From contig JAXLQJ010000001.1 of assembly GCA_046331705.1 (NCBI GenBank), positions 371,063 to 391,062 of the forward strand: a stretch of 20,000 bases of DNA, written 5' to 3'. Below are positions 3,614-18,397 of the stretch, piece by piece; the first letter of the stretch is position 1; each line of letters starts with the position of its first letter. Source of the DNA: a bacterium (GTDB lineage Bacteria; JADJOY01). The translations under genes were made by a program, and so were the position numbers. Below the pieces are notes generated by a model, which had not been told where the DNA came from, ran no database searches, and saw only the letters and a list, made by a program, of their open reading frames with translations.

Positions 3614-4753
3614 ATGGACGTGGACGTCACGATCGTCGGCGGCGGCGTCGTGGGCGTCGCATGCGCGGCGGCGCTCGCGGCACCCTCGCGCAGCGTGCTC
3701 CTGATCGAGCGGAACGCGCGGCTCGGCCTCGAGACGTCGAGCCGCAACAGCGGCGTCATCCACGCGGGCATCTACTACGCGGAGGGCTCCCTCAAGGCAC
3801 GCCTGTGCGTGGAGGGACGCGAACGGCTCTATCGCCATTGCGTCGAGCGAGGCGTTCCGCATCGCCGGATCGGCAAGCTGATCGTCGCAACCGACCCCCG
3901 CGAGGAAGAAGCGCTCGAATCGATCCGGCGTCGTGCCGAGGCGAACGGCGTCTCGAGCCTCGTGCCGCTCGATGCGCCGCAGCTGCGCGCGCTGGAACCG
4001 GAGGTGCGCGCGACGGCGGCGCTTCACTCGCCCGAGACCGGCATCGTCGACGCCTTGGCGCTGGTCGCGTCGCTCTGGCGCGAAGCCCAAGACGGCGGTG
4101 CCGAGCTGGTGCTGGGCACCGAGGTCGGCGCCCTCGATCGGGTGCGCGACGGCTGGCGGGTCACCACCGCGACGCGCGGCGGCGGCCGCTCGGAGCACAC
4201 GAGCCGGCTGGTGGTGAACGCTGCTGGGCTCGCGAGCGACACGATCGCGGCGCGCGCGGGCATCGACGTCGACGCGGCGGGCTATCGGATCCACGCCATC
4301 AAGGGCGACTACGTCTCGGTGGCGCCAGCAGCGGCGCGGCGCGTGAGCCGCCTCGTCTATCCGGTTCCTCCCGCGGCAGGTCACGGTCTCGGCGTCCACT
4401 GGACGCTCGACCTCGAAGGGCGCGCGCGGCTCGGGCCGGATGCCACGTGGATCGACCGCGATGCGCCCAGCTACGCCGTGGATGCGACGAAGTGCGCTCG
4501 CTTCTTGGAAGGCGCGCGCCGCTTCCTGCCGTTTCTCGCGCTGGAGCAGCTGGCACCCGAGTCGAGCGGGATCCGTCCGTCACGCCGCGCGCCCGGCGCA
4601 CCCGAGCAGGACTTCGTGGTGGCGCACGAGAGTGCCCGCGGCTTGCCCGGACTCGTGAACCTGATCGGCATCGAATCGCCTGGCCTCACCTCGTGCCTGG
4701 CGATCGCCGCTCACGTCCGCGCACTCCTCGCCAGCGCCGATCTCCTCGACTGA
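3614..4753 (+). CDS. FAD-dependent oxidoreductase, L-2-hydroxyglutarate oxidase (LhgO)-like family
   Basis: Rossmann 'IVGGGVVG', 'ETSSRNSGVIHAGIYY', 'GLGVHWTLDL', 'GPDA', 'NLIGIESPGLTS'. Confidence 0.9.
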   Translation: MDVDVTIVGGGVVGVACAAALAAPSRSVLLIERNARLGLETSSRNSGVIHAGIYYAEGSLKARLCVEGRERLYRHCVERGVPHRRIGKLIVATDPREEEALESIRRRAEANGVSSLVPLDAPQLRALEPEVRATAALHSPETGIVDALALVASLWREAQDGGAELVLGTEVGALDRVRDGWRVTTATRGGGRSEHTSRLVVNAAGLASDTIAARAGIDVDAAGYRIHAIKGDYVSVAPAAARRVSRLVYPVPPAAGHGLGVHWTLDLEGRARLGPDATWIDRDAPSYAVDATKCARFLEGARRFLPFLALEQLAPESSGIRPSRRAPGAPEQDFVVAHESARGLPGLVNLIGIESPGLTSCLAIAAHVRALLASADLLD

Positions 4754-4884
4754 CCCGCTCGGCAGGGCGCGCTCGCGTCTCGCGCGCCGCGCGCCGAGCG
4801 CGAAACCGTCTCACGCATGAGCCGACCGAGACGATCGCCGGCGGCGCGTCTCAATCGTTTCGCGGTCTTCGCCGCGTCGTCGCG

Positions 4885-4900
4885 CGGCACGCCGCTTTCA
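4885..4900 (+). promoter_or_regulatory. Possible sigma54 (-24/-12) promoter
   Basis: CGGCACG-CCGC-TTTCA versus consensus TGGCACG-N4-TTGCW (two mismatches, one in the conserved -12 GC). Lies upstream of RBS GGAGGA (4931-4936). Confidence 0.3.
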
Positions 4901-4942
4901 GTGGGTGCTCGCGAATCCCGCTCTCGAAAAGGAGGATCCGCC

Positions 4943-5581
4943 GTGCACCGCATGCGCCACACGATCGACGAGATTCGCCCCTGGTCGCTCGGCCCTCGCA
5001 GCATCGAGCGCCATCCTCACGGCGCCGATCACGACACCCGCGAGCTGCTTCGCCACGGCCTGCGCGCTCGCATCACGGCGGCGCCCACGGGAGGCTCGCA
5101 TCCGCCGCCGAGCGTGCGCGCGCGGCGCCCGGTGGTGCGCTCGTGGCGCAGCACGCGCGTGGGGGCGCGGGCCGAGCTCGCCGCCCGCGAAGCGAGCGCC
5201 GCGCGCTCCGGCACGGCGGAGGACGCCACCCTCCGGCGTCACGATCACGCTGCCGGGCTCGTCGGCATGGCGCTCGGCACCGCCATCGGGCTCGCACTGC
5301 TTCGGTGCGCCGGACCGTGGGCGTTTCGCGCCGACTGGATGGTCGCGACCGTGCCGCTGCTCACGCTGTGGGCCTCGGTCGGCGGGCTGGTGGCCATCTC
5401 GATCGTCCGCGCGCGGCGCGGCGAGGAGCCGCTTCCGGAGCTCACGGCTCGCGGCCCCCTCGGCGAACGTCGCTCGCTCGCGCGGCCGGTTGCGATCGGG
5501 GCGATCCTCGGCGTGGTGCTGGTCGCGGCCCTGCGCGTCGGCATCGCGGTGTCGAGCTGGCTGCCTGCGGTGCCGAGCTGA
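4943..5581 (+). CDS. Hypothetical membrane protein (about 3 TM segments in C-terminal half)
   Basis: GTG at 4943 preceded by GGAGGA. Hydrophobic segments 'GLVGMALGTAIGLALL', 'WMVATVPLLTLWASVGGLVAISIV', 'VAIGAILGVVLVAALRVGIAV'. Arg-rich middle may hide an indel. Confidence 0.55.
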   Translation: MHRMRHTIDEIRPWSLGPRSIERHPHGADHDTRELLRHGLRARITAAPTGGSHPPPSVRARRPVVRSWRSTRVGARAELAAREASAARSGTAEDATLRRHDHAAGLVGMALGTAIGLALLRCAGPWAFRADWMVATVPLLTLWASVGGLVAISIVRARRGEEPLPELTARGPLGERRSLARPVAIGAILGVVLVAALRVGIAVSSWLPAVPS

Positions 5582-5617
5582 ACTCCCAGCACCGCGCCGT
5601 GCCGGGCCGATTCGCGG

Positions 5618-7641
5618 TCAGAGCGCGGCGCGCCGTCGGGTGCCGCGACGCAGCAGGCGCAGCGCCGCGAAGAGCGCGAGCGCCGCGCCGAAGGGAGGCA
5701 TCCAGGCGCCGCGCGCGCGCGAGCCTCCGCTCCCTGCTTCCGCAAGCTCGGGGGTGAGGCAGCCGGGGGTCGAAGCGGTGCAATCGTCGTCGACGCCGTT
5801 GCCGGGGATCTCGATGGCGCCGGGGTTCACGTTCGGGTTGGCGTCGTTGCAGTCGGCGGCGCCGCACACGCCGCCCTCCGCGGCGAAGCCGTCGCGGTCG
5901 CCGTCGGTGCATGGAGCGGCATTCGCTTCGAACGCGCCGGCGTCGCACGCACCCGCGTTCCGGACGTAGTTACGCTGATCGCGCGTCGAGCACGAGGCCG
6001 CGACACCGGCATCGATCGCCACGCTGCCGGCGCCGAGCGCGCGAGTCTCGGAAAGCCCGCCAGCGAGCGCGAGCGGCTCGAGCGCCAGCGCGGCCACGCT
6101 CACCGCCGATTGGTCGTGCGCGGCAGCGAGCCCGCAGCTCGCGATCGGGCTCTCGACGTTGCCGCCCAGCGACGCCAGGGGGACGGTGCCGTCGCAGACG
6201 CTCAGCACCGGTGCCGCGGGCGGCGCGATCGCGTAGCTCGCCGCGAGAATCGAGTTGGCGAGCGTGGTCGTGCCGTTGGAATCGACGTTGCCGCCACGAA
6301 CCGCACCGGCGACCTCCGAGGTGCCGGACACCACCACGTTGTCCGCGAACGTCGCGTGCGCGACCGCCCTGCCGTTGGCCTGCAGCCCGCCGCGCTGGCG
6401 TCGCCCCGCGTCCGACGGACAACGGGCTGTCGTGGCCGTTGCCACCCACCGGCGTTCCCGACCAGCGTGGCGTTGACGAGCGCGGCGGTCGCGCCGCTCG
6501 CGACGAAGATACCGGCGCCGCTCGCCGCGCCACCATCGCGCGGCTCCATGTCGCGAACCCGTTGCCGCCGACCTGGCGTTGTCGCGGCGATCAGCGTGCG
6601 CTCGATCGTCACCGTGCCGACGCGAGCCGAGAGCGCCGCGCCACGCGGCAGCGCCCGGCTCACCGCTGCCCGCGCTGGCGCGGTTCTCGCGGATCACCGA
6701 GTCGGCGACCGTGGCGGTGCCACCGGCAAGCGCCACCGCGCCGCCGCTCGCATCTCCCGGGATCCCCCAGTCCACGCCGAGGTACTCGGCGCCATTGCCG
6801 CCGACCGCCTCGTTCTCGACCAGCAACGAGCGCAGAACCGTCACCTCGCCCTCGCTGTAGAGCGCGCCGGCCTCGGCCGCTCCGCCGTTTCCGACGCGAA
6901 AGCAATGGCAGGGGTTTTCGTCGGTGCAGCAGTAGGCGGCGCCGTCGCCGCCCTTCGCCCGGTTGTTGCTCACGCGCGCGCCGTCGAGGATGAGCGTACC
7001 GGTGGCGGAATTGAAGATGCCTCCCCCGGTCCCCGAACCGCCATCGCGAACGCCGCCGCCACGGGCCTCGTTGCCGGTCACCACGACTCGCACGAGCGTG
7101 AGATCGCCGTCGTTGCGGAGGCCGCCGCCAGCCACGGGCTCGCTGGGCGCCCCCACCAGCGATCCACCGGTGATCGTGAGGTCCTGGATGTGAACCGTCG
7201 CGTTCGAGGCGACCTGAAGCACGCGATCACCGGAGCCCGCCGCCGTGATCGTCGTCATCGCGGCGCCGCGTCCAGCCAGGCGCAGGTCCTCACGGACGTC
7301 CAGATCGCCGGTGGCTGCGGAGTCCTCGGCGGAGCCGACGATCGTCAGCGCGTAGCTCGCTGCGTCGAGAACGATCGTGTCCTCGCCGGGCGATCCGGCG
7401 GCGCACGCGTCCACGGCCGCATTGGAATTCGCCGCCAGCACCGCCTCGCGCAGCGTGCAATTCCCGTTCGCACCCTGGTCGGCGTCGTCTGCCGTGGCAT
7501 GCACTTCGTAGAGCGTGGCGCTCGCCGTCGACGACGCGGACAACGCCAGGCACAGGCTCCACGCGAGCGTTCTCGTCCGCGGCTGGAATGCTGCGCTCGC
7601 GAACGTGGCGAACGCAACGATCGAGCCGCACGCGTGCTCAT
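5618..7641 (-). CDS. Secreted CSLREA-domain / choice-of-anchor-Q beta-helix protein with Cys/Asp metal-binding motif and C-terminal TM anchor (apparent indels)
   Basis: ATG at 7641 with GAGGAG RBS; needs a frameshift to join the signal-like 'TLAWSLCLALSASSTASA'. Motifs 'GNCTLREAVLAAN', 'GDLDV', repeated GGG-I/L-x-N, 'DQRNYVR..ACDAGAFE', 'DCNDANPNVNPGAIEIPGNGVDDDC', and a hydrophobic+basic tail. Between ~6380 and 6650 the sensible reading is in another frame ('GAGIFVASGATAALVNATLVGN'). Confidence 0.8.
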
Positions 7642-7779
7642 GACATCGCTCCTCGTCGTCGAAAGAATCGCGCGACGAGCGGCCCGAACGGCCACCGCTC
7701 GCGTCGATGGTACGCGCCGCCGTGGAACCGCCACAAGCATGCGGCCGCGCGACCGCGCTGCATCCTGGCTTGGCGTGAC

Positions 7780-8536
7780 GAGCAGGATCGGCGCAGCTCG
7801 ACGAGCCACGCTTCGATCTCACTCGCGTTTCGCGGCTCGTGCGGAAGCGGCGATGCAGGGCGCGTCGTCGAGCGCGGCGAAGAGCGCGTCGAGGCGCGGC
7901 GCCCACGTCGCGATGCTCGTTGCCAGCGCCGCGCGCTCGACGCTTGCGTTCGATGAAATTCGTTCACGCCCTCGAGCGCCATCTCGTCCGCCAGCTCGGT
8001 GAGATCGATCACGAAACCTGCCGGTTCGGAGCAGATGAATGCCCGTCGACGCCGTGCAGGGCACGTAGAGCAGACAGCGGCCGTGGGACGTTCCGCGAGG
8101 CGGACGCGCTGCTGCGTCGCGAAGCCGCGGTAGTGGCCGTGGAAGCGACGGCTCAGCGCGCGGTTCGCGATCGGGCGCAGCGTGTCAGTTCCGGCGAGGT
8201 CAGAGCGCCGTGCAACCGAGGACGCGTTCCAGGAAGTTCCCGTTGCCACGCAAGATGCCCGCGAGCGCCGGGCCGACCTCGTTCGACGTGTAGTCGATCT
8301 CGACGCCCTCGAGGGCACTTCCGCTCGATCGGGCGTGGCGCGCGGCGGTTCGAGCCCCAGCAGTGCATCGGTGGGCGCCGTGGATCGCCTTGAGGTCGAG
8401 GTCGCTGTCGGGCGACGGAAGCCGGCCACGTGGGCGCAACTCAGGTACACGACGAGGTGCATGCGGCGCGCGGTCCTCGGCGCGATCGGCTCGCGATCGT
8501 GCGCTGATGCGAGGTGAGCCGTGCGTCGACGCTCAT
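7780..8536 (-). CDS. Pol-beta superfamily nucleotidyltransferase, RlaP/YcgL-like (second of pair; frameshifted; 3' end approximate)
   Basis: ATG at 8536 overlaps the upstream TGA (ATGA). Pieces across frames: 'MSVDARLTSHQRTIA', 'HLVVYLSCAH..GF', 'PSPDSDLDLKAIH' (DxD), 'GVEIDYTSNEVGPALAGILRGNGNFLERVLG', 'LSRRFHGHYRGFATQQ', 'TGIHLLRTG', 'LPHEPRNASEIEAWLVELR'. Confidence 0.8.
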
Positions 8537-9776
8537 GCCGACCACTCGGCCGCGGGCGGCGCCGGCGCGTCACGGCCCCGGCCCCGGCGTCTGCGGAGAA
8601 GCGCCGCGCGACCTCGACGCCGATCCGCCGCGCGAGCGCGTCGGCGCGAGCGAGGTCCGCGCGCGGCGGCAGGCGCGTGGAGGCGCGGGGCCGCGTCGAG
8701 CGCGGGGATGAGCGAGTCGGCCTCGGCCATCACCTCGGCCAACGGAACCTCGCCGCGCTTGATCGAGGCCAGGCGTTCGTGCACCGCGCCGCTCGGAGCG
8801 AAGACGGGCTCGCCGTTTCGCAGCCACTCCGTCGCGGTCCAGATCAATCGCAGCAGGGTTGTACGCGTTCTTGGGCCGAAGCTCTCGCGCGGCAGCTCGA
8901 AGGAATGAGCGCGCTCCCGGGCGAATGCGACCAATGCGCGAAGTCGCTGCGGCAGGAATCCTGATCGTGAAGCGAGCGGTAGAGCTGCTTCACCCATTGC
9001 TTGCACTCGAGCGCGTGGCTCGAATCACCGGCGCCGGGCGCGCGCGACGTGCGCAACGCGATGCGCGCGGCCACCTGATCGAGATCGAGCGTGGGTTCCT
9101 CGCGCAGCCAGGCCAGCACGTCGTCGCGATGAGCGGCCAGTCGCGCGCTTTGCTGAAGGCGCCGCAGCTGCGCGATGGCGTAGCGGCGCCCGGGCTGGTG
9201 ACCGTGGATCTCCGCGGAAGCGAAGGCGTCGCGCTCGCCGAGGAGCCAGGCACCGATCTCGTCGAGCAATTCGGGCTTCCGGCACGAACAGCATCTCGAG
9301 GGTGTTGGGATCGGCGCGCAACGCCTGGCGGATCGCCTTCTCGATGACGGACCAGTAGGTGCGCGTGCCGTCGAGGCTCACCAGGTCGTGTGGCGGTTCG
9401 ACCAACCCCGCGATCAGGGCAGCAACGCAGACCTCCGCGCGCGTATCGACGTCGGACGACTCGTCGGCGAGCCCACGCCCGCGAGCCCACCACCGTCTCG
9501 GGGACGCGGCCTGGCGCGCCGGACCGACCAGCTCGCCTCGCGGCGCATGAAGGGACTTGCCCGACTTCGTCGCGGCAGCAGCACGTCGGCGCGGGCACAG
9601 CGAAGGCGGCCGACGCCGACGACCGTCACCTCGGTAAAATCCGCCGTCGCCCAGGTGACGCGGCCGACGGTGCCCTGTGGCACGGTCCGCTCGCCCAGCG
9701 CGCGATCGACGCGCAGCACCACCTCGGTGCCGTGCAGCAGCAGCACTCGCCGCGGGTCGAGATCCGCGAGGCTCAC
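8533..9776 (-). CDS. Pol-beta superfamily nucleotidyltransferase, RlaP-like, with extra N-terminal beta-rich domain (first of pair; frameshifted)
   Basis: GTG at 9776 with GAGG upstream. Pieces across frames: 'HGTEVVLRVDRALGERTVPQGTVGRV', 'ETVVGSRAW' + 'GLADESSDVDTR' (GS...DxD), 'EKAIRQALRADPNTLEMLFVP', 'YAIAQLRRL', 'KQLYRSLHDQ', 'LLRLIWTATEWLRNGEP', 'LASIKRGEVPL'. TGA at 8533-8535. Confidence 0.8.
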
Positions 9777-9798
9777 GCGCCTGGCGCCTCATCGCGCG

Positions 9799-9804
9799 AG
9801 TATA
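9799..9804 (-). promoter_or_regulatory. Possible -10 element (TATACT) for the nucleotidyltransferase pair
   Basis: TATACT on the minus strand ~23 nt upstream of GTG 9776 in otherwise very GC-rich DNA. No convincing -35. Confidence 0.35.
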
Positions 9805-9999
9805 GGCGCGGCGGCACGACGCTGCAGCGCCGGGCCCGCTCGGCCGTGGCACGGCCTGGCGTTGTGGTCCTCGCTTCCGCCGTGGAGCTATCGTCGTCAT
9901 GGCGCGACCGGCCACGGCCGACCGACGAGCCCTCCTCCACCGCCGCCGACGACGACCACCCGCCCCAAACCGTCGCGACCGATTCGCGGGCCGGACCCC

Positions 10000-10511
10000 G
10001 GGTCGATCGTCGAGGGCGGCGACCCAGGCTGACGAGGCGCCGCTTCGATGACGAAGAGGGCGAAGACACCATGCCGTTCGATTGCGGTCGATCTGCGCGA
10101 GGTTGTGCTCGAAGTCGGCGGCGGAGTGGATCAAGAGATTGATCTTGAACTCGGTCTCCGAGGCCGTCGCCCAATCCGGGTAGAGGCGGCCCGGGCTCAG
10201 GATGTGGATGGTGCCGGTGAGCAGCGTGCCGGCGCCGATGGCCATCGCGGCCACGAACGCCGCCATCGCCAGCCAGAACCACTCGTCGTAGGCGATGAGC
10301 GGCTTGATCGCCTTGAGGATCCCCAGCGCGCCGACGGTGAACGGGATCATGAGCGCGATCAGCGCCTGGAGCCGCCCTCGGCGGCCTGATAGCGCGTGAT
10401 GAGCCACGCGTACGAGTCGCGCACGAATCCGAACGCCGGCTCGACGCCGGGGTAATCCGCCTTCAGCTCCTCGGACGAACGATCGGCCCAGGACGTCGTG
10501 TCGTTGCTCAT
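10000..10511 (-). CDS. Small ~3-TM membrane protein, PycTM/DUF5706-like topology (frameshifted; 3' end approximate; not called intact by the ORF track)
   Basis: ATG at 10511 with GGAGGA RBS gives 'MSNDTTSWADRSSEELKADYPGVEPAFGFVRDSYAWLITRYQAAEG'. A one-base shift in a G run (~10375) continues 'RLQALIALMIPFTVGALGILKAI..WFWLAMAAFVAAMAIGAGTLLTG..LSPGRLYPDW..FKINLLIHSAADFEHNLAQIDR'. A third hydrophobic stretch 'GVFALFVIEAA..AWVAAL' follows further shifts. Confidence 0.65.
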
Positions 10512-10708
10512 GCGCTCTCCTCCGTTCGGTCCCGCCGGGTTCGCCGGGTCTGCGCGTCAGGCCGGCAGCGCGGCACGCGTTCCCGCGTGGAGCCTCCGTA
10601 CGTGTGCGCGCGGCGCTCGCGGGTCACCGGCAGGGCCTCGGCCGTTCTAGCCAACCAAGCTCGCCGAAACTAGGTAGCTTCCGGTATCGTCGCCGCGCCA
10701 CGACCGCG

Positions 10709-10753
10709 GAGTCGCCAGAGCCACCAGAGTCGCCGGAGTTGCTGGAGTTGCCC
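10709..10753 (+). repeat. Five imperfect 9-nt tandem repeats abutting the CHAT gene start
   Basis: GAGTCGCCA GAGCCACCA GAGTCGCCG GAGTTGCTG GAGTTGCCC, then ATG at 10754. Confidence 0.7.
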
Positions 10754-13700
10754 ATGGCCGCGTACGCGACGATCACGTTCACACGGCTCGGTCTCGAGCT
10801 GCGCTCGCCGGCAGCGAATCTGCGCGAGGACCGGCCGCTTCGCGCGGAAGACGCCACGCGCTTCGAAGCCTGGAGCCAGCGGCAGCGGCAGCTCGCCCGG
10901 AAGGATCACGCGGACGCCGCTCGCGAGCTGCTGGCGCTCGGCGAGGAGATCTTCGCGTGGCTCGATGGCGCCGAGCGTTTCCTCACGCGCCTCGTCGAGA
11001 GCGCGCCCACCGCTCGAGATCGAGCTCGCCATCGGCAAGGTCGATACGGATGCCCCCGCGCGTGCGTTTCTCAACGCGCCGTGGGAGCTGCTCGCCGCCA
11101 ACGGCGAGCACTGGGCGCTGCGTGAGGACATCGTGCTCGTGCCCGTGCGGCGGATCGGCAAGGCTTCGCCCCCGCCCGCCCCTTCCCCCAACCGGCTCGC
11201 GCTGGTGTTCATGGCGGCGGCGCCCCGGGGCGCCGACAACCTGAGCTACGAGGCCGAGGAAGCGACGATCCTCGACGCCACGAAGGGCCTGGGACTCGAC
11301 CTCGTGGTGGAGGAGAGCGGCACCCTCGATCTGCTCTCGGCGATCGTGGCCCGCGAGAAGCCGGACGTGGTGCAGCTCTCGTGTCATGGCGCGCTCGAGC
11401 CCGAGCCGGCGTTGCTCCTCGAGGACGACCTCGGCGATCCCGCCGTCACCCCGGCCAAGGAGCTGGTCCGGAAGCTCGCGGGCCACCCTCCGCGGATGCT
11501 CTTTCTCTCGGCCTGCGAGACCGCGGAAGCGCATCCCGTCCTCGACTCCTTGGCCCCGGCGTTGGTGCGCGCTGGGGTCCCCTCCGTCCTGGGCTGGGCC
11601 GCACCCGTCCTCGACAACGAGGCGTCGATCTTCGCCGCCGCCCTTCAGAGGCATCTCGCGAGCGGCGAGGACCTGGCACGCTCGCTCGCGTACGCGCGCC
11701 TCGAGCTCGCGTCCTCGTCACGCCTCCCCGAGCGCGACGAGTCCCCCATTCGCTCCCACGACTGGCACCTGGCGCGCGTCTATCTCGGCACCGCGGGCGG
11801 CGGCGCCCTCGCCACCGCCGGCGGACCGCGGAAGCACATCGATCGCGGCCGGGCGCTCAAGACCTTCCTCGATGCCAAAGGCCAGCGCGTCCCGGTGGCG
11901 AGCGAGGCCGAGTTCGTGGGGCGGCGGCGCCCGATCCAGACCCACCTGCGCGAGCTGCGCGCAGGCCGAGGCAGGCCGCCCGCGCTGGCCGTGTTGATCC
12001 GCGGTGTGGGCAGGCAAGGAAAATCGAGCCTGGCGGCGCGGGTGGCCCAGCGCCTCGAACGGACCCACGACGTGGTCGTGTTGTTCGAGCGCTACGACGG
12101 TGCGGCGGTGATCTCGGCGTTGCGGGAGCGGATCGGCCGGCCGGCGATCGGGGAATGGGTGGATCGCCACCTGCCGCGGGTGGAGGAGGATCCCCGGCAC
12201 CTCCGGGAAGCGCTCGCGGAGTTGCTGGAAGGACCGTGCGCTCAGCTCCGCGAGGCGCGCGAGGACGACACCCTGCCGAGAAGCCCGTGTTGCTGGTGGT
12301 GGACGACTTCGAGCAAGCGCTGGAAGGGCACGCCGATGGGCTGCACACCGTGCGAGCGGAGCTGATCGAGCCCATCCGCGCCCTGATCCTCGCGTTCGGG
12401 AGCGCCGCCACGGACTCGCGGCTCGTCTTCACCAGCCGCTTCCAGTTCACGTTGCCGAGCGGCGGCCGTGATCTGGCGGATCGCCTGCTCGATCTGCCGC
12501 TCCCGGGAATGGACGAGCACGAGGCGCGGAAGCAGGCCGCCGCCAAGCTCGCGGTCGCGGTGGGCGGCGGCGACGTCGCGCCCGAAGGGCTCGTCGCCGT
12601 GGCCGATCCCGAGCGCCTCGGCGCCATCTTGCTGGCGGCGCAGGGAAACCCCGGGCTTCAGGATCTGCTCTTCTCGCTCGCGCTAGACAACCCAGCCGCC
12701 TGCGATCGGTGCCTCCACCAGATGGAGGCCTACCGAAGCGAAGGCACGCTCCCGAGCGAGGAGGCGGTTCGGGAGTTCTTCGAGAAGATCGCCATCGAGG
12801 CGATCCTCGCGCTGCTCTCACCGGCCCATCGTGAGCTGCTCCGAGCCGCCACGCTCTTCGAGCTGCCCGTTCCGCGGAGGTCATGGAGGATCCTGGGCGG
12901 CGAAAGCGAGATCGCGGCCACGAGGTTGGGTCTGAGCAGGCTCACGAGCCTCGGTTTGATCGAGACCTACGAGGACCTCCACGACCGCCGCGAGACGGCG
13001 CTCGCGATCAACGCCCTCATCCGGCCTCTTGCCGGCAGCCTCGATGCGGACGAGCGCCGGGCGAAGGCTTCGCTCGCCGCCCCGCGCCTCCTCGAATGCT
13101 GGGGTGGTGCAGCGGGCAGCCAGGAGCGCGGCTACCTCGGGACCTCGAGCTCACGCGGCTTGGGCTCGCGGCGCGAAGCGGCGCGGTGGTGGCGGCAACG
13201 GGTGCCGATGCGCTGCGGTTTCCTGGACACACGCTTCGAGTATCGGCAGGCGGCCCAGGTGGGCGGTCGCGATCCTGGAGCTGCTCGACGAGCAGGGTGT
13301 CGAGCCATCCGTCGATCTGCGCGCCGCGCCGAGCTGCATACGGGTCGGCGAGGTCGATCGCGCACGACGTTCCGCCGGCGCGCACTCACCAGCGAGCGAG
13401 AAGGGCAGCGCGCCCGATGACATCCCACCGACTCGCCACGCTCCTCGACCATGCCCGCCGCCCTGGTGCAGAGGAGCGCGGACGAGGCCTTGCCCCTCTT
13501 CGAGACCGTGCGCCAGTTGCTTCCCGAAGGGCGCAGGCAGGCGGTGACGCTCGGGGACATCGCGCGCATCCGGGCGGACAAGGGCGATGTGGACGGTGCG
13601 CTCGCGTTGCACGAGAAGCTCGCGATCGTCGAGGGCTCGGCGACAAGCGCTCGCGGGCGGTGACGCTCGGGGTTGTCGCGCATCCGGGCGGACAAGAGCG

Positions 13701-14864
13701 ATGTGGACGGTGCGCTCGCGTTGCACGAGGAGGAGGCTCGCGGTCTACGAGGGGCTCGGTGACAGCGCAGGCGTGCGGTGACGCTCGGGGACATCGCGCG
13801 CATCCGGGCGGATAAGGGCGATGTGGACAGTGCGCTCGCGTTGCACGAATCGCGATCGTCGAGGGAGCTCGGCGACAAGCGCTCGCGGGCGGTGACACTC
13901 GGGGACATCGCGCGCATCCGGGCGGACAAGGGCGATGTGGACGCTGCGCTCGCGTTGCACGGAGGAAGGCTCGTCCTACAGGGGCTCGGGGCCAAGCGCC
14001 GGCGTGCGGTGACGCTCGGAGACATCGCGCGCATCCGGGCGGATAAGGGCGATGTGGACGGTGCGCTCGCGTTGCACGAGGAGGAACTCGAGGTCTACGT
14101 CGAGGAACCGGGGAAAAGCTCGCGGGCGGTGACGCTCTGGGGACATCGCGCATCAAGATGAAGGGCGATGTGGACGGTGCGCTCGCGTTGCACGGAGGAG
14201 GCTCCGCTGATCTTCGAGGGGCTCGAGGACAAAGCGCAGGAGCAGGCGGTGACGCTCGGGGTCCTCGCGCGCATCCGGGCGCGTAAGGGCGATGTGGACG
14301 AGTGCGCTCGCGTTTGGCGAGGAGATGCCGATCTTCGAGGGGCTCGGGGACAAGCGCTCGCGTGCGGTGACGCTCAGGGACATCGCGCGCATCGAGGCTT
14401 CGAGGGCGATGTGGACGATTGCGCTCGCGTTGCGGGCTCGCGGTCTACGAGGGCTCGGTGACAAGCGCTCGCGGGCGGTGACGCTCGGGGACATCGCGCG
14501 CATCCGGGCGTCAAGGGCGATGTGGACGGTGCGCTCGCGTTGCACGAGGCTCGCGGTCTACGAGGGGCTCGGGGATCTCGACGGGATCGCCAACACGCTC
14601 TGGTCGATCGCTCGGATCGAGATCGAGCAAGAGAAGTTCCAGGAGGCCTACGAGCGGCTTCAGCGCTCGTACGAGATCAATCTCAAGCTCGGCCGGCTCG
14701 ACGGGATCTGCATGGTTGGCGTCGATCTCGGTCAACTGCTGGCGATGGGCGGTCACCGGGAGGAGGGGCTGGCGGTGCTCGCGCGATCGCGAGGTAGGTT
14801 CGTGCGGCTCGGGCAGGTGCAGCTCGCGCAACGGTTCGAAACCTGCTGGATGAAGTTGCGGTGA
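10754..14864 (+). CDS. CHAT (caspase-like) protease + STAND/NB-ARC-like NTPase + TPR protein (NLR-like), split by several indels
   Basis: 'APWELL', catalytic His 'VVQLSCHG' (~11385), catalytic Cys 'LFLSACETA' (~11515), 'HDW', 'FVGRR', Walker A 'GVGRQGKSSLA' (~12003), Walker B 'LLVVDDFEQ' (~12295), 'FTSR', 'QGNP', then TPR array ending at TGA 14864. Frame switches near 11010, 12280, 13140-13440 and within the repeats. Confidence 0.85.
13541..14572 (+). repeat. Nine near-identical ~120-nt tandem repeats encoding 40-aa TPR units
   Basis: Core GCGGTGACGCTCGGGGACATCGCGCGCATCCGGGCGGACAAGGGCGATGTGGACGGTGCGCTCGCGTTGCACGAG recurs at 13541, 13657, 13775, 13889, 14006, 14126, 14246, 14364, 14475. Consensus peptide DKRSRAVTLGDIARIRADKGDVDGALALHEEELAVYEGLG. 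Confidence 0.95.
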
Positions 14865-15030
14865 GCGGAGGCCTTCCGAGGGTCGGTAGAAGGCACCTGC
14901 CTCCCGGTACCGCGAGTGCGGGCGGGTATTCGGGCGCCACGATCCCGGGCGGGCGGAGGCTCCGTCCTCCGAATCGCGGCGCGACGATCGGCTGGAGGAC
15001 AACACGCCGGTCGTTCTCGAGGGCGAACCC

Positions 15031-15052
15031 GGCGACCGAGGGACCGGTCGCC
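15031..15052. terminator. GC-rich hairpin between convergent genes
   Basis: GGCGACCG-AGGGAC-CGGTCGCC, a perfect 8-bp stem. No U-tract, so terminator function is uncertain. Confidence 0.3.
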
Positions 15053-15079
15053 CTCCGCCGATGCCGGAACGGGCGCCGC

Positions 15080-17460
<2,381 letters not shown>

Positions 17461-17464
<4 letters not shown>

Positions 17465-18249
17465 GACGAGCGCTCCTTTCGATTCGCGGAGCGCGTTCGG
17501 CGCGTCGCGGTCGCTTGCGTGGACCTGGGGTTGCTGGGACGAGCGGGAACCGAGTGCAAGCGCGCGCTCGAATTCGCGCGCACGGCGGCGGCCGAGCCGT
17601 CGAGCCCGAGCAGGATCATCGCGGTGTCGATCACCGACTTCCGGACGCGCGCCGCGTGCGCCGGATCGCTCAGATCCTTGCCGAAGTACTGACGCTGGCT
17701 CGGCTGATCGAGGAAGGCCTGCGCGAACTGTCCGTAGAAGAGGCTCAGCATCACCTCGACGTCGATGTCGCGCGTGCGGCCTTCGTCCTTGAGCCGCGAG
17801 AAGTACTGGACCGCCATCCGGAACCACGGCGCGAAGGTCTGGAACACTCCCGGGAAATCCATCGACTCGGCCTGCATCGAGGCCCACATGCCGATGCGGA
17901 TGGGACGCGGGTCGACGAGCAGCGCATCGAACATCGTGCCGATGAGCTTCGGCACCGCGACCTCCACCGGCTGCGCCACGTCCAGGCACTCGCGGGTGAG
18001 GCGCATCACCTGGCGCGCCACGGCATCGCAGACCGCGAGCCAGAGACTCTCCTTCGAGCCCCAGTGGTAGTTGAGCGCGGCCACGTTCACGTTGGCGCGC
18101 TTGCAGATCTCGCGCGTGGACGTGCCGTCGAACCCGTACTCGGCGAAGACGTCGAGCGCCGCCTCGAGGATGCGGGCGCGGGCACCGGCTTGCTCGGCGG
18201 CCTCGGCTTCCGAGCGGGTGGGACGACGGACGAGCGCACGAACGGACAT
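17461..18249 (-). CDS. TetR/AcrR family transcriptional regulator
   Basis: ATG at 18249 with GGAGG RBS. HTH 'RARILEAALDVFAEYGFDGTSTREICKRANVNVAALNYHWGSKESLW'. Stop overlaps the next ATG (ATGA). Confidence 0.92.
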
Positions 18250-18298
18250 GTCGCGAGACCTCCCGAGTGGCGAGCCGGCGCTGCGGCGCCGCTGGGCA

Positions 18299-18326
18299 AT
18301 CGATTGAATCATCCGATTCAAACGAT
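18299..18326. promoter_or_regulatory. Palindromic operator, probably for the adjacent TetR
   Basis: ATCGATTGAATC-ATCC-GATTCAAACGAT: 12-bp arms with one mismatch and a perfect core TTGAATC-N4-GATTCAA, directly downstream of the -10 box. Confidence 0.75.
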
Positions 18327-18331
18327 CGCTT

Positions 18332-18360
18332 AAAGTACGGGCGCGTGCGCGCGGCGTCAA
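18332..18360 (-). promoter_or_regulatory. Sigma70-type promoter for the tetR / ABC1-diiron operon
   Basis: Minus strand TTGACG (18360-18355), 17-nt spacer, TACTTT (18337-18332). Confidence 0.75.
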
Positions 18361-18397
18361 GCACGGCGCCGTCGCGGAGGGGCGTCGGGGAGAAGCG

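Follow-up and report, generated by a model that had tools for sequence, protein, structure and literature searches.

Two RlaP-family nucleotidyltransferases, a three-helix membrane protein and a CHAT–P-loop–TPR protein side by side in one bacterial genome, probably as separate units

The 20,000-nt stretch of DNA analysed here (contig JAXLQJ010000001.1, positions 371,063 to 391,062, GTDB lineage JADJOY01), called the window below in its full length, has a G+C content of 70% and holds four neighbouring genes that a preliminary description had singled out as a candidate defence locus. To follow this up, reading frames were picked by third-position G+C and by comparison with relatives. Two of the genes encode nucleotidyltransferases of the Pol-beta type (NTase2 and NTase1), the third encodes a small protein with three transmembrane helices (3-TM), and the fourth encodes a CHAT protease joined to a P-loop NTPase and TPR repeats. 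Their coordinates and orientations were borne out, as was the head-to-head arrangement at about 240 bp described before: the start codons of the 3-TM and CHAT genes diverge and are separated by 243 bp. Each of the four is broken by frameshifts in this assembly. They lie between a gene for a secreted protein with MopE motifs and a gene for an ABC1 kinase (Table 1). We read the locus, with a probability of roughly 0.7, as three separate units standing side by side (the NTase pair, the 3-TM protein and the CHAT protein) and not as one immune system, because the NTase pair stands without the other two genes in a sister genome (G001) and because homologues of the three units co-occurred in none of the loci that we surveyed, 49 of CHAT relatives, eight of 3-TM relatives and five of the NTases.

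The gene order in G001 is secreted protein, NTase2, NTase1 and ABC1 kinase. Local alignments of this locus (L002) to the window stop at 9810 and restart at 14966, and a search at the boundaries of the segment in between, which carries the 3-TM and CHAT genes, found no terminal or shared repeats of at least 8 nt. Among six genomes of the phylum this segment of 5.15 kb occurs only in this species, and nothing else links its two genes. The 3-TM gene was likewise found in one of the six, the present one. Relatives of the CHAT protein inside the phylum are 30–36% identical to it, while those in other phyla are 60–66% identical, and since the best matches thus lie outside the phylum the CHAT gene was probably acquired by horizontal transfer. 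The six genomes compared, from two genera of one family, are those by which the phylum was represented in the collection searched.

The NTase pair was found in further genomes. The overlap of the two genes in G001 is 49 nt. The pair is also present in G003, in two copies, and in a Polyangiaceae metagenome-assembled genome (MAG); in this MAG both members match RlaP and overlap by 10 nt. A second Polyangiaceae locus showed NTase1 only. By tblastn at E<=1e-6, relatives of the 3-TM and CHAT genes are missing from all five NTase loci, which come from four genomes. The 49 loci of CHAT relatives come from many phyla, and in 39 of them the sequence upstream of the CHAT gene measures 700 bp or more; not one matches the hidden Markov model (HMM) of the 3-TM family at E<=1 (the window itself: 2.7e-28), and not one matches the NTases of the window at E<=0.01, as the window itself does. 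The eight loci of the 3-TM family, from Acidobacteriota and one Chloroflexota MAG, were found with a 9-row subset of the 51-row family alignment, the full set being too diverse. Their neighbours are heterogeneous, and no locus has a match to the NTases, to the CHAT-STAND HMM or to the HMM of a small partner gene described below, while the 3-TM HMM finds all eight. The preliminary description had proposed a survey of gene neighbourhoods as the check on a joint system; homologues of the 3-TM, NTase and CHAT-STAND genes are together in no surveyed locus.

As observations on the two G003 copies (loci L044 and L046, on two contigs), both run ABC1 kinase, secreted MopE-motif protein, NTase1 and NTase2, an order that differs from that in the window and G001 (ABC1, NTase1, NTase2, secreted protein). 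One copy adjoins a HigA-like antitoxin gene, and its NTase1 is frameshifted. The records of the closest NTase relatives are labelled as Polyangiaceae or Deltaproteobacteria MAGs.

Table 1. Features of the window, and loci elsewhere that carry the small partner gene
Feature	Position	Strand	Basis or remark
Secreted MopE-motif protein, intact gene	5618-7906	-	One flank of the four-gene stretch
NTase2, RlaP-family Pol-beta nucleotidyltransferase, ~225 aa	~7776..8450	-	Frameshift-aware alignment, ~10 frame breaks
NTase1, longer RlaP paralogue, ~420-439 aa	8536..9792	-	~12 frame breaks
TATACT, -10-like box	9799..9804	-	6 nt upstream of NTase1 ATG (9790-9792); conserved in G001
Segment of 5155 bp absent from G001 (44 bp instead)	9811..14965		Holds exactly the 3-TM and CHAT genes
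Three-helix membrane protein (3-TM), 169 aa, unnamed family	10511 (ATG) to ~10012	-	5 frame breaks, stop codon lost here
Divergent intergenic region of the 3-TM and CHAT genes, 243 bp	10512..10754		Read from the sequence
CHAT protease - P-loop (AAA_16/STAND-type) NTPase - TPR protein, ~1370 aa	10755 (ATG)..14864 (stop)	+	Pfam, motifs
TPR-type unit of 114 bp (38 aa), ~9 copies, in the CHAT gene	13540..14575	+	Tandem Repeats Finder: 77% matches, 9% indels
ABC1 kinase gene	from 15080	-	Other flank of the four-gene stretch
Small partner gene, 25 loci of CHAT relatives	L048, L050, L052, L053, L055-L061, L063, L066, L067, L069, L071, L072, L079, L081, L085, L087, L088, L090, L092, L093		

Protein families at the locus

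The broken NTase frames of the window had no Pfam match, the frameshifts being the cause, and intact orthologues were used in their place. The window's NTase1 is 73% identical to such an orthologue (321 of 439 residues against G001, with 12 frame breaks in the frameshift-aware alignment) and its NTase2 62% (142 of 229 against G003, with 10). The intact orthologues match the Pfam family RlaP (PF10127) at 66.5, 92.2, 54.4, 67.5, 91.6 and 56.6 bits, above the cut-off of 23, which upholds the tandem Pol-beta NTases of the preliminary description; the NTase2 orthologue matches over its full length at 92 bits, the NTase1 orthologues reach 54–67 bits, and PHROG nucleotidyltransferase families match them as well. 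The Pol-beta catalytic motif (G-S/A ... D-x-D) reads VGSRAWGLADESSDVD in the orthologues of NTase1 and LSGAHAYGFPSPDSDLD in those of NTase2. Its acidic residues are retained in the window, where NTase1 keeps GS..SDVD and NTase2 has SC in place of the SG of the SG..DSDLD conserved in its orthologues. The paralogues are about 25% identical to each other. Around its RlaP core, NTase1 carries some 110 additional residues at the N terminus and a helical extension at the C terminus; the true start of NTase2 may lie further upstream, towards 8530.

The NTase pair appears to have its own start signals, because a conserved TATACT box lies 6 nt from the ATG of NTase1 within sequence shared with G001, in the aligned block that ends at 9810. 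The preliminary description had taken this box to favour at least partial independence of the NTases, a remark that stands. The scan for consensus promoters did not call the box; its spacing to the ATG suggests a leaderless or near-leaderless NTase1 transcript. In the 243 bp between the 3-TM and CHAT genes no consensus promoter was found, and the scan of the intergenic regions for promoters and terminators came back empty.

In the part of PMC12776372 that deals with RlaP, the characterised enzymes PfRlaP and PaRlaP add one or two nucleoside monophosphates to the 3'-OH ends of RNA, this biochemistry is given for these two only, and the characterised RlaPs belong to RtcB operons (section 5 of the same paper). 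The present pair shares with the RlaPs of RNA-repair operons (PfRlaP and PaRlaP, and NrdC.11 of phage T4) the PF10127 match and the G[SA]...D.D motif, but it consists of two diverged paralogues arranged as an overlapping pair, one of them with the N-terminal extension and a long C-terminal one. The family owes its name to genes that neighbour an RNA ligase (RtcB or a 5'-phosphate ligase), whereas no RNA ligase gene was found here in the scanned parts of the window: neither RtcB/RtcA nor another RNA ligase family was among the Pfam matches of the frames overlapping 7400-15200 and of selected other open reading frames (ORFs), and no ligase family was among those of the NTase neighbours in loci L043 and L045. 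Nor do the NTases belong to CBASS through a CD-NTase (cGAS/DncV-like), both being RlaP proteins whose orthologues have no PADLOC match. Going by family membership, the most likely activity of the pair is the addition of one or two nucleotides at RNA 3' ends. It would be co-transcribed from its own promoter box, as a stable two-gene module of a Myxococcota-like lineage. Because both paralogues keep the catalytic motif and the orthologous genes overlap by 10–49 nt, NTase1 and NTase2 probably form a heteromeric modifier of RNA 3' ends that works without a neighbouring ligase gene. Such a pair outside an RNA-ligase operon could reveal a role of RlaP apart from RtcB repair.

The 3-TM gene has its ATG preceded by the Shine-Dalgarno sequence GGAGGAGAG, runs in the same orientation as the NTase genes and ends about 220 bp before NTase1. 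As previously described, its product is a small protein with three hydrophobic segments; it is identical at 158 of 169 residues, across five breaks, to an intact database protein of 169 aa (P0001). The 90% cluster of this protein holds three intact members of 169 aa from other assemblies (97% identity) and one fragment of 50 aa, and the closest relative beyond it, P0003, is 53% identical to P0001. Among 1.84 billion proteins the family has 78 representatives at E<=1e-3, mostly of 155–180 aa, and matches nothing in Pfam, PADLOC, PHROG or NCBIfam. Close relatives were sought in two metagenome scans, of which one gave nothing and the other a single marginal match, and a scan of viral contigs gave none. 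An AlphaFold2 model of the protein is confident (pLDDT 93.8), with helices at 23-69, 77-98, 107-114 and 119-168; compared with the PDB by Foldseek, it retrieved only generic helical bundles (E>=0.17). The protein would be a small stand-alone membrane protein of a family of about 160 aa, with a conserved cytoplasmic helical bundle on three membrane helices, and our best guess, held with low confidence, is a ligand-gated or partner-gated protein that perturbs membranes. With a confident fold prediction and no database name, this family is one of the smaller leads that remain.

The preliminary description had called the protein PycTM-like, which no sequence test confirmed. On the 3-TM gene the PycTM model (PF18967) has no match even at E<=10, 14 members of the family showed no PycTM in hmmscan at E<=1, and hhalign of the family against six PycTM members gave a probability of 0.5%. 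The resemblance is echoed by language-model features only: the clusters nearest to the intact protein (score 0.94) carry PF18967 in 15–33% of their members. Stand-alone PycTM-domain proteins are similar in size (about 105–200 aa) and in layout: their N-terminal helix is followed by two membrane helices and a soluble helical part, and a further membrane helix comes last; in contrast to Pycsar, no cyclase gene is present here, as no cyclase family (PycC) was among the Pfam matches of the frames in 7400-15200 and there was no PADLOC match. Elsewhere, in a Pyrinomonadaceae MAG (L020:5018-8359), a 3-TM homologue lies 5 nt downstream of a gene for a trypsin-like peptidase and is followed by a gene for a protein of 219 aa and one of the DprA/SLOG family, which may be a small conflict-type cluster.

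In the CHAT protein, the CHAT domain (PF12770) reaches 76.6 bits (cut-off 24), and TPR_12 (39.2 and 30.5 bits) and TPR_7 (36.8 bits) are all above theirs. The third element of the architecture proposed earlier, a STAND-type P-loop NTPase, is less firm: AAA_16 reaches 28.3 bits on the window's piece, below the Pfam cut-off of 32.6, with Walker A (GRQGKSS) and Walker B (LLVVDDFE) present. SCHG, with the histidine, and SACETA, with the cysteine, are found in the CHAT domain; H141 and C184, which we take to be the catalytic dyad, are invariant in 16 sequences, and all four motifs are invariant in the family alignment. NCBIfam added nothing beyond TPR-level matches. The family has 243 proteins at E<=1e-10, with 66% as the best identity; CHAT, AAA_16 and TPR occur together in most of the 120 that were listed, most homologues among the matches listed carry a precomputed PF13191, and none of the 243 has an experimental name in the sources listed. 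As judged from sequence, the architecture is that of an already known, large family. Two frame breaks precede 13140 and about 13 lie in the repeat region, which also has one in-frame stop, at 13661; frameshift-aware alignment is unreliable in the TPR repeats and misplaced the global end, the true C-terminus being in the frame 14253-14864.

By its domains the protein would be a single-gene, NLR-like molecule with a protease of the caspase-like type at its N terminus, a P-loop NTPase and a TPR sensor. By analogy with STAND proteins, binding of a ligand at the TPR array would lead to oligomerisation dependent on nucleoside triphosphate and would switch the protease on. Caspase-like N-terminal effectors occur on bacterial Apaf-1 orthologues, as stated in the relevant part of PMC13581612, and part of PMC10907252 deals with conflict proteins of the CHAT and STAND kinds. 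The order of protease, P-loop NTPase and repeat sensor is the same as in those proteins, but the sensor here is a TPR array and not a beta-propeller, and the NTPase scores below the AAA_16 cut-off in the window's piece. PADLOC covers the protein only at the level of the CHAT or TPR domain. With BovA of Borvo, presumably a single-gene CHAT defence system, it has the CHAT protease core in common, the BovA models matching 60–160 residues around the catalytic region, and the remaining architecture is not shared. No full-length match to BovA was found, either for the window (24.2 bits, model positions 537-600 of 720) or for full-length CHAT homologues (at most 33.4 bits, positions 510-602 of models with 711–720 positions).

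A different conserved small gene, one that the window lacks, accompanies the CHAT gene in 25 of the 49 loci (Table 1). It encodes about 130–150 aa with one hydrophobic helix and usually lies directly upstream of the CHAT gene and co-oriented with it, and downstream in two loci. Neither NCBIfam nor PADLOC matches the small partner, and Pfam matches neither of two related copies from Verrucomicrobiota. The CHAT relatives nearest to the present one in other genomes, the three at L012, L047 and L049, have neither the small partner nor a 3-TM gene. The small partner could be a substrate or adaptor of the protease, and is a better candidate for this than anything in the window; found beside half of the CHAT–P-loop–TPR proteins, it is a lead outside the window. 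Its motif is roughly ..DP.AVAALVLSIP.ALLAT.DLA.RL.LK.KV.RLI.. (for example L053:4310-4699). In one Alphaproteobacteria MAG (L015:3438-10609), two CHAT-STAND genes stand in tandem with identical N-terminal sequence, a recent duplication.

Frame breaks across the four genes

About 42 frame breaks, located by frameshift-aware alignment to intact orthologues (tblastn ran across frames), are spread over the four genes and confined to about 7.7–14.3 kb, with clean flanks. We compared the region 4000-18000 with contigs from four public activated-sludge or digester runs of four studies, for which 32 of about 5,370 matching pieces were listed. Of the listed pieces, the 13 in 4000-5808 or 15592-18000 are all free of gaps, with mismatches at about 0.25%, and each of the 13 that overlap 7692-13557 has 1–35 gaps and 2–5% mismatches. 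Identical indels are shared by up to four runs, those at 7770, 7914, 8076 and 8200 by all four, and the breaks predicted from orthologues at 8207, 8080, 8013 and 7955 correspond to indels in the runs at 8200, 8076/8078, 8015 and 7957.

The frameshifts are most likely assembly errors, because they are private to this assembly while intact copies and frame-restoring contigs are found elsewhere; that they are errors of a consensus left unpolished within one patch of the assembly we consider very likely, and the four genes are probably intact in nature. Some observations weigh against this. The listed indels are not limited to homopolymers, and the cause of the frameshifts is one that we infer. 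Real frameshifts, in a strain that carries a decaying block of pseudogenes with all four genes non-functional, would fit the confinement of the breaks between clean flanks and the parallel rise of mismatches to the other populations in the block, and in NCBI's annotation of this contig the 3-TM protein is represented by no more than a fragment of 50 aa. We nevertheless consider such a strain unlikely. Once corrected, the NTase and 3-TM frames have no in-frame stop codons, and the four independent populations hold the frame-restoring state. Natural decay is usually far less rich in indels than the five indels to 11 residue differences of the 3-TM copy, and this ratio of about 1:2, with no large deletions, is unlike pseudogene decay. 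Moreover G003, for which the contig names suggest a long-read assembler, is also frameshifted in NTase1.

Whatever their cause, a patch of several kb (about 7.7–14.3 kb, with some indels from about 5.9 kb) that has dense indels unshared by four data sets calls for technical caution. The indel-rich patch, at 5850-14300, starts inside the secreted-protein gene, where pieces covering 5853-6861 have 9–11 gaps and the ORF is still open. A genome-wide count of similar patches by open-frame cover, phase switches and period-3 strength was set aside, as these measures also pick out intact genes whose composition is unusual and overlook the NTase region.

Separate units or one system

The preliminary description had left two readings side by side, an undescribed system of sensor protease and membrane effector, with or without nucleotidylation, or a small hotspot of independent genes. 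The surveyed loci and G001 favour independent genes over the single system, and the notion of a defence hotspot found no backing either, PADLOC matches being at domain level only and the flanking genes ordinary.

What weighs most against three separate units is the arrangement of the 3-TM and CHAT genes, which adjoin head to head within one indel. A 3515-bp contig of an independent run reaches from NTase1 through the 3-TM gene into the 5' part of the CHAT gene, so that this arrangement is stable in the species. The survey of the 3-TM family covers only eight loci, all distant (23–39% identity to P0001), with P0003 left out, and the lack of co-occurrence in relatives at 25–66% identity is compatible with a pair that formed recently; such a recent pair is, in our estimate, quite improbable. 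A module of two genes acquired together, whose sensor-activated protease would cleave or release a membrane-damaging 3-TM protein with the NTases as bystanders, we regard as distinctly unlikely. The single 5155-bp indel, the shared 243-bp intergenic region and the linkage that recurs in the 3515-bp contig all speak for it. So do the small partners beside 25 of 49 CHAT relatives, a sign that members of this family tend to act together with a second, small protein, the peptidase gene 5 nt upstream of the 3-TM relative in L020, and the language-model neighbours of the 3-TM protein, 15–33% of whose cluster members carry the effector module PycTM. Yet no 3-TM homologue accompanies any of the 49 CHAT relatives, the closest of which (L012, L047 and L049) have no small partner in its stead, no CHAT-STAND gene is present in the eight 3-TM loci, the two genes are divergent and do not form an operon, and there is no sequence-level tie of the 3-TM protein to PycTM.

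The logic of such a module would be gasdermin-like with a different membrane effector. Gasdermin systems consist of a caspase-like protease and a pore-forming substrate. As in their bacterial forms, a caspase-family protease with a repeat sensor here adjoins a gene for a protein that looks membrane-active, but this neighbour is an integral three-helix membrane protein and the pairing is not conserved. No gasdermin family was among the Pfam matches of all frames of at least 70 aa in 7400-15200, where a very divergent form could escape. A more specific version, in which the CHAT-STAND-TPR protein has recruited the 3-TM protein as a new membrane effector or substrate in place of the small partner, the two having been acquired together on the 5.15-kb segment and being distinct from gasdermins and Pycsar, is very improbable; if true, it would amount to a protease-triggered module of membrane damage.

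That all four genes make up one system of sensor, nucleotidylation and membrane effector seems scarcely credible. Adjacency alone speaks for it: the 3-TM gene runs in the orientation of the NTases and stops about 220 bp short of NTase1. Against it, the NTase pair occupies the same place in G001 without the other two genes and has other contexts in G003 and the Polyangiaceae MAG, and NTase1, which keeps its own conserved TATACT box, is separated from the 3-TM gene by the indel boundary at 9810/9811. The NTases, moreover, belong to a family of RNA 3'-end addition and are not CD-NTases or cyclases, and have no PADLOC match; there is no co-occurrence in the 49, eight and five loci, and comparative data already contradict a joint system. 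We thus keep to three separate units. A four-gene defence construct is not supported, which saves bench work.

Flanking genes

The genes around the four were described beforehand as unrelated, and they are indeed metabolic, regulatory and secreted-protein genes: Pfam assigns a methyltransferase, a sulfatase, an oxidoreductase, the secreted MopE-motif protein, the ABC1 kinase and a TetR regulator. An ORF at 3661-5757 (+), of 698 aa, has good third-position G+C, a weak period-3 signal and no Pfam match. The window sequence was found again in activated-sludge and digester runs. In the frame of the ABC1 atypical kinase (15083-18397, -), the C-terminal region after the kinase domain weakly resembles di-iron oxygenase-like families (AurF, Phenol_Hydrox and DUF455, with E from 1e-4 to 1e-2).

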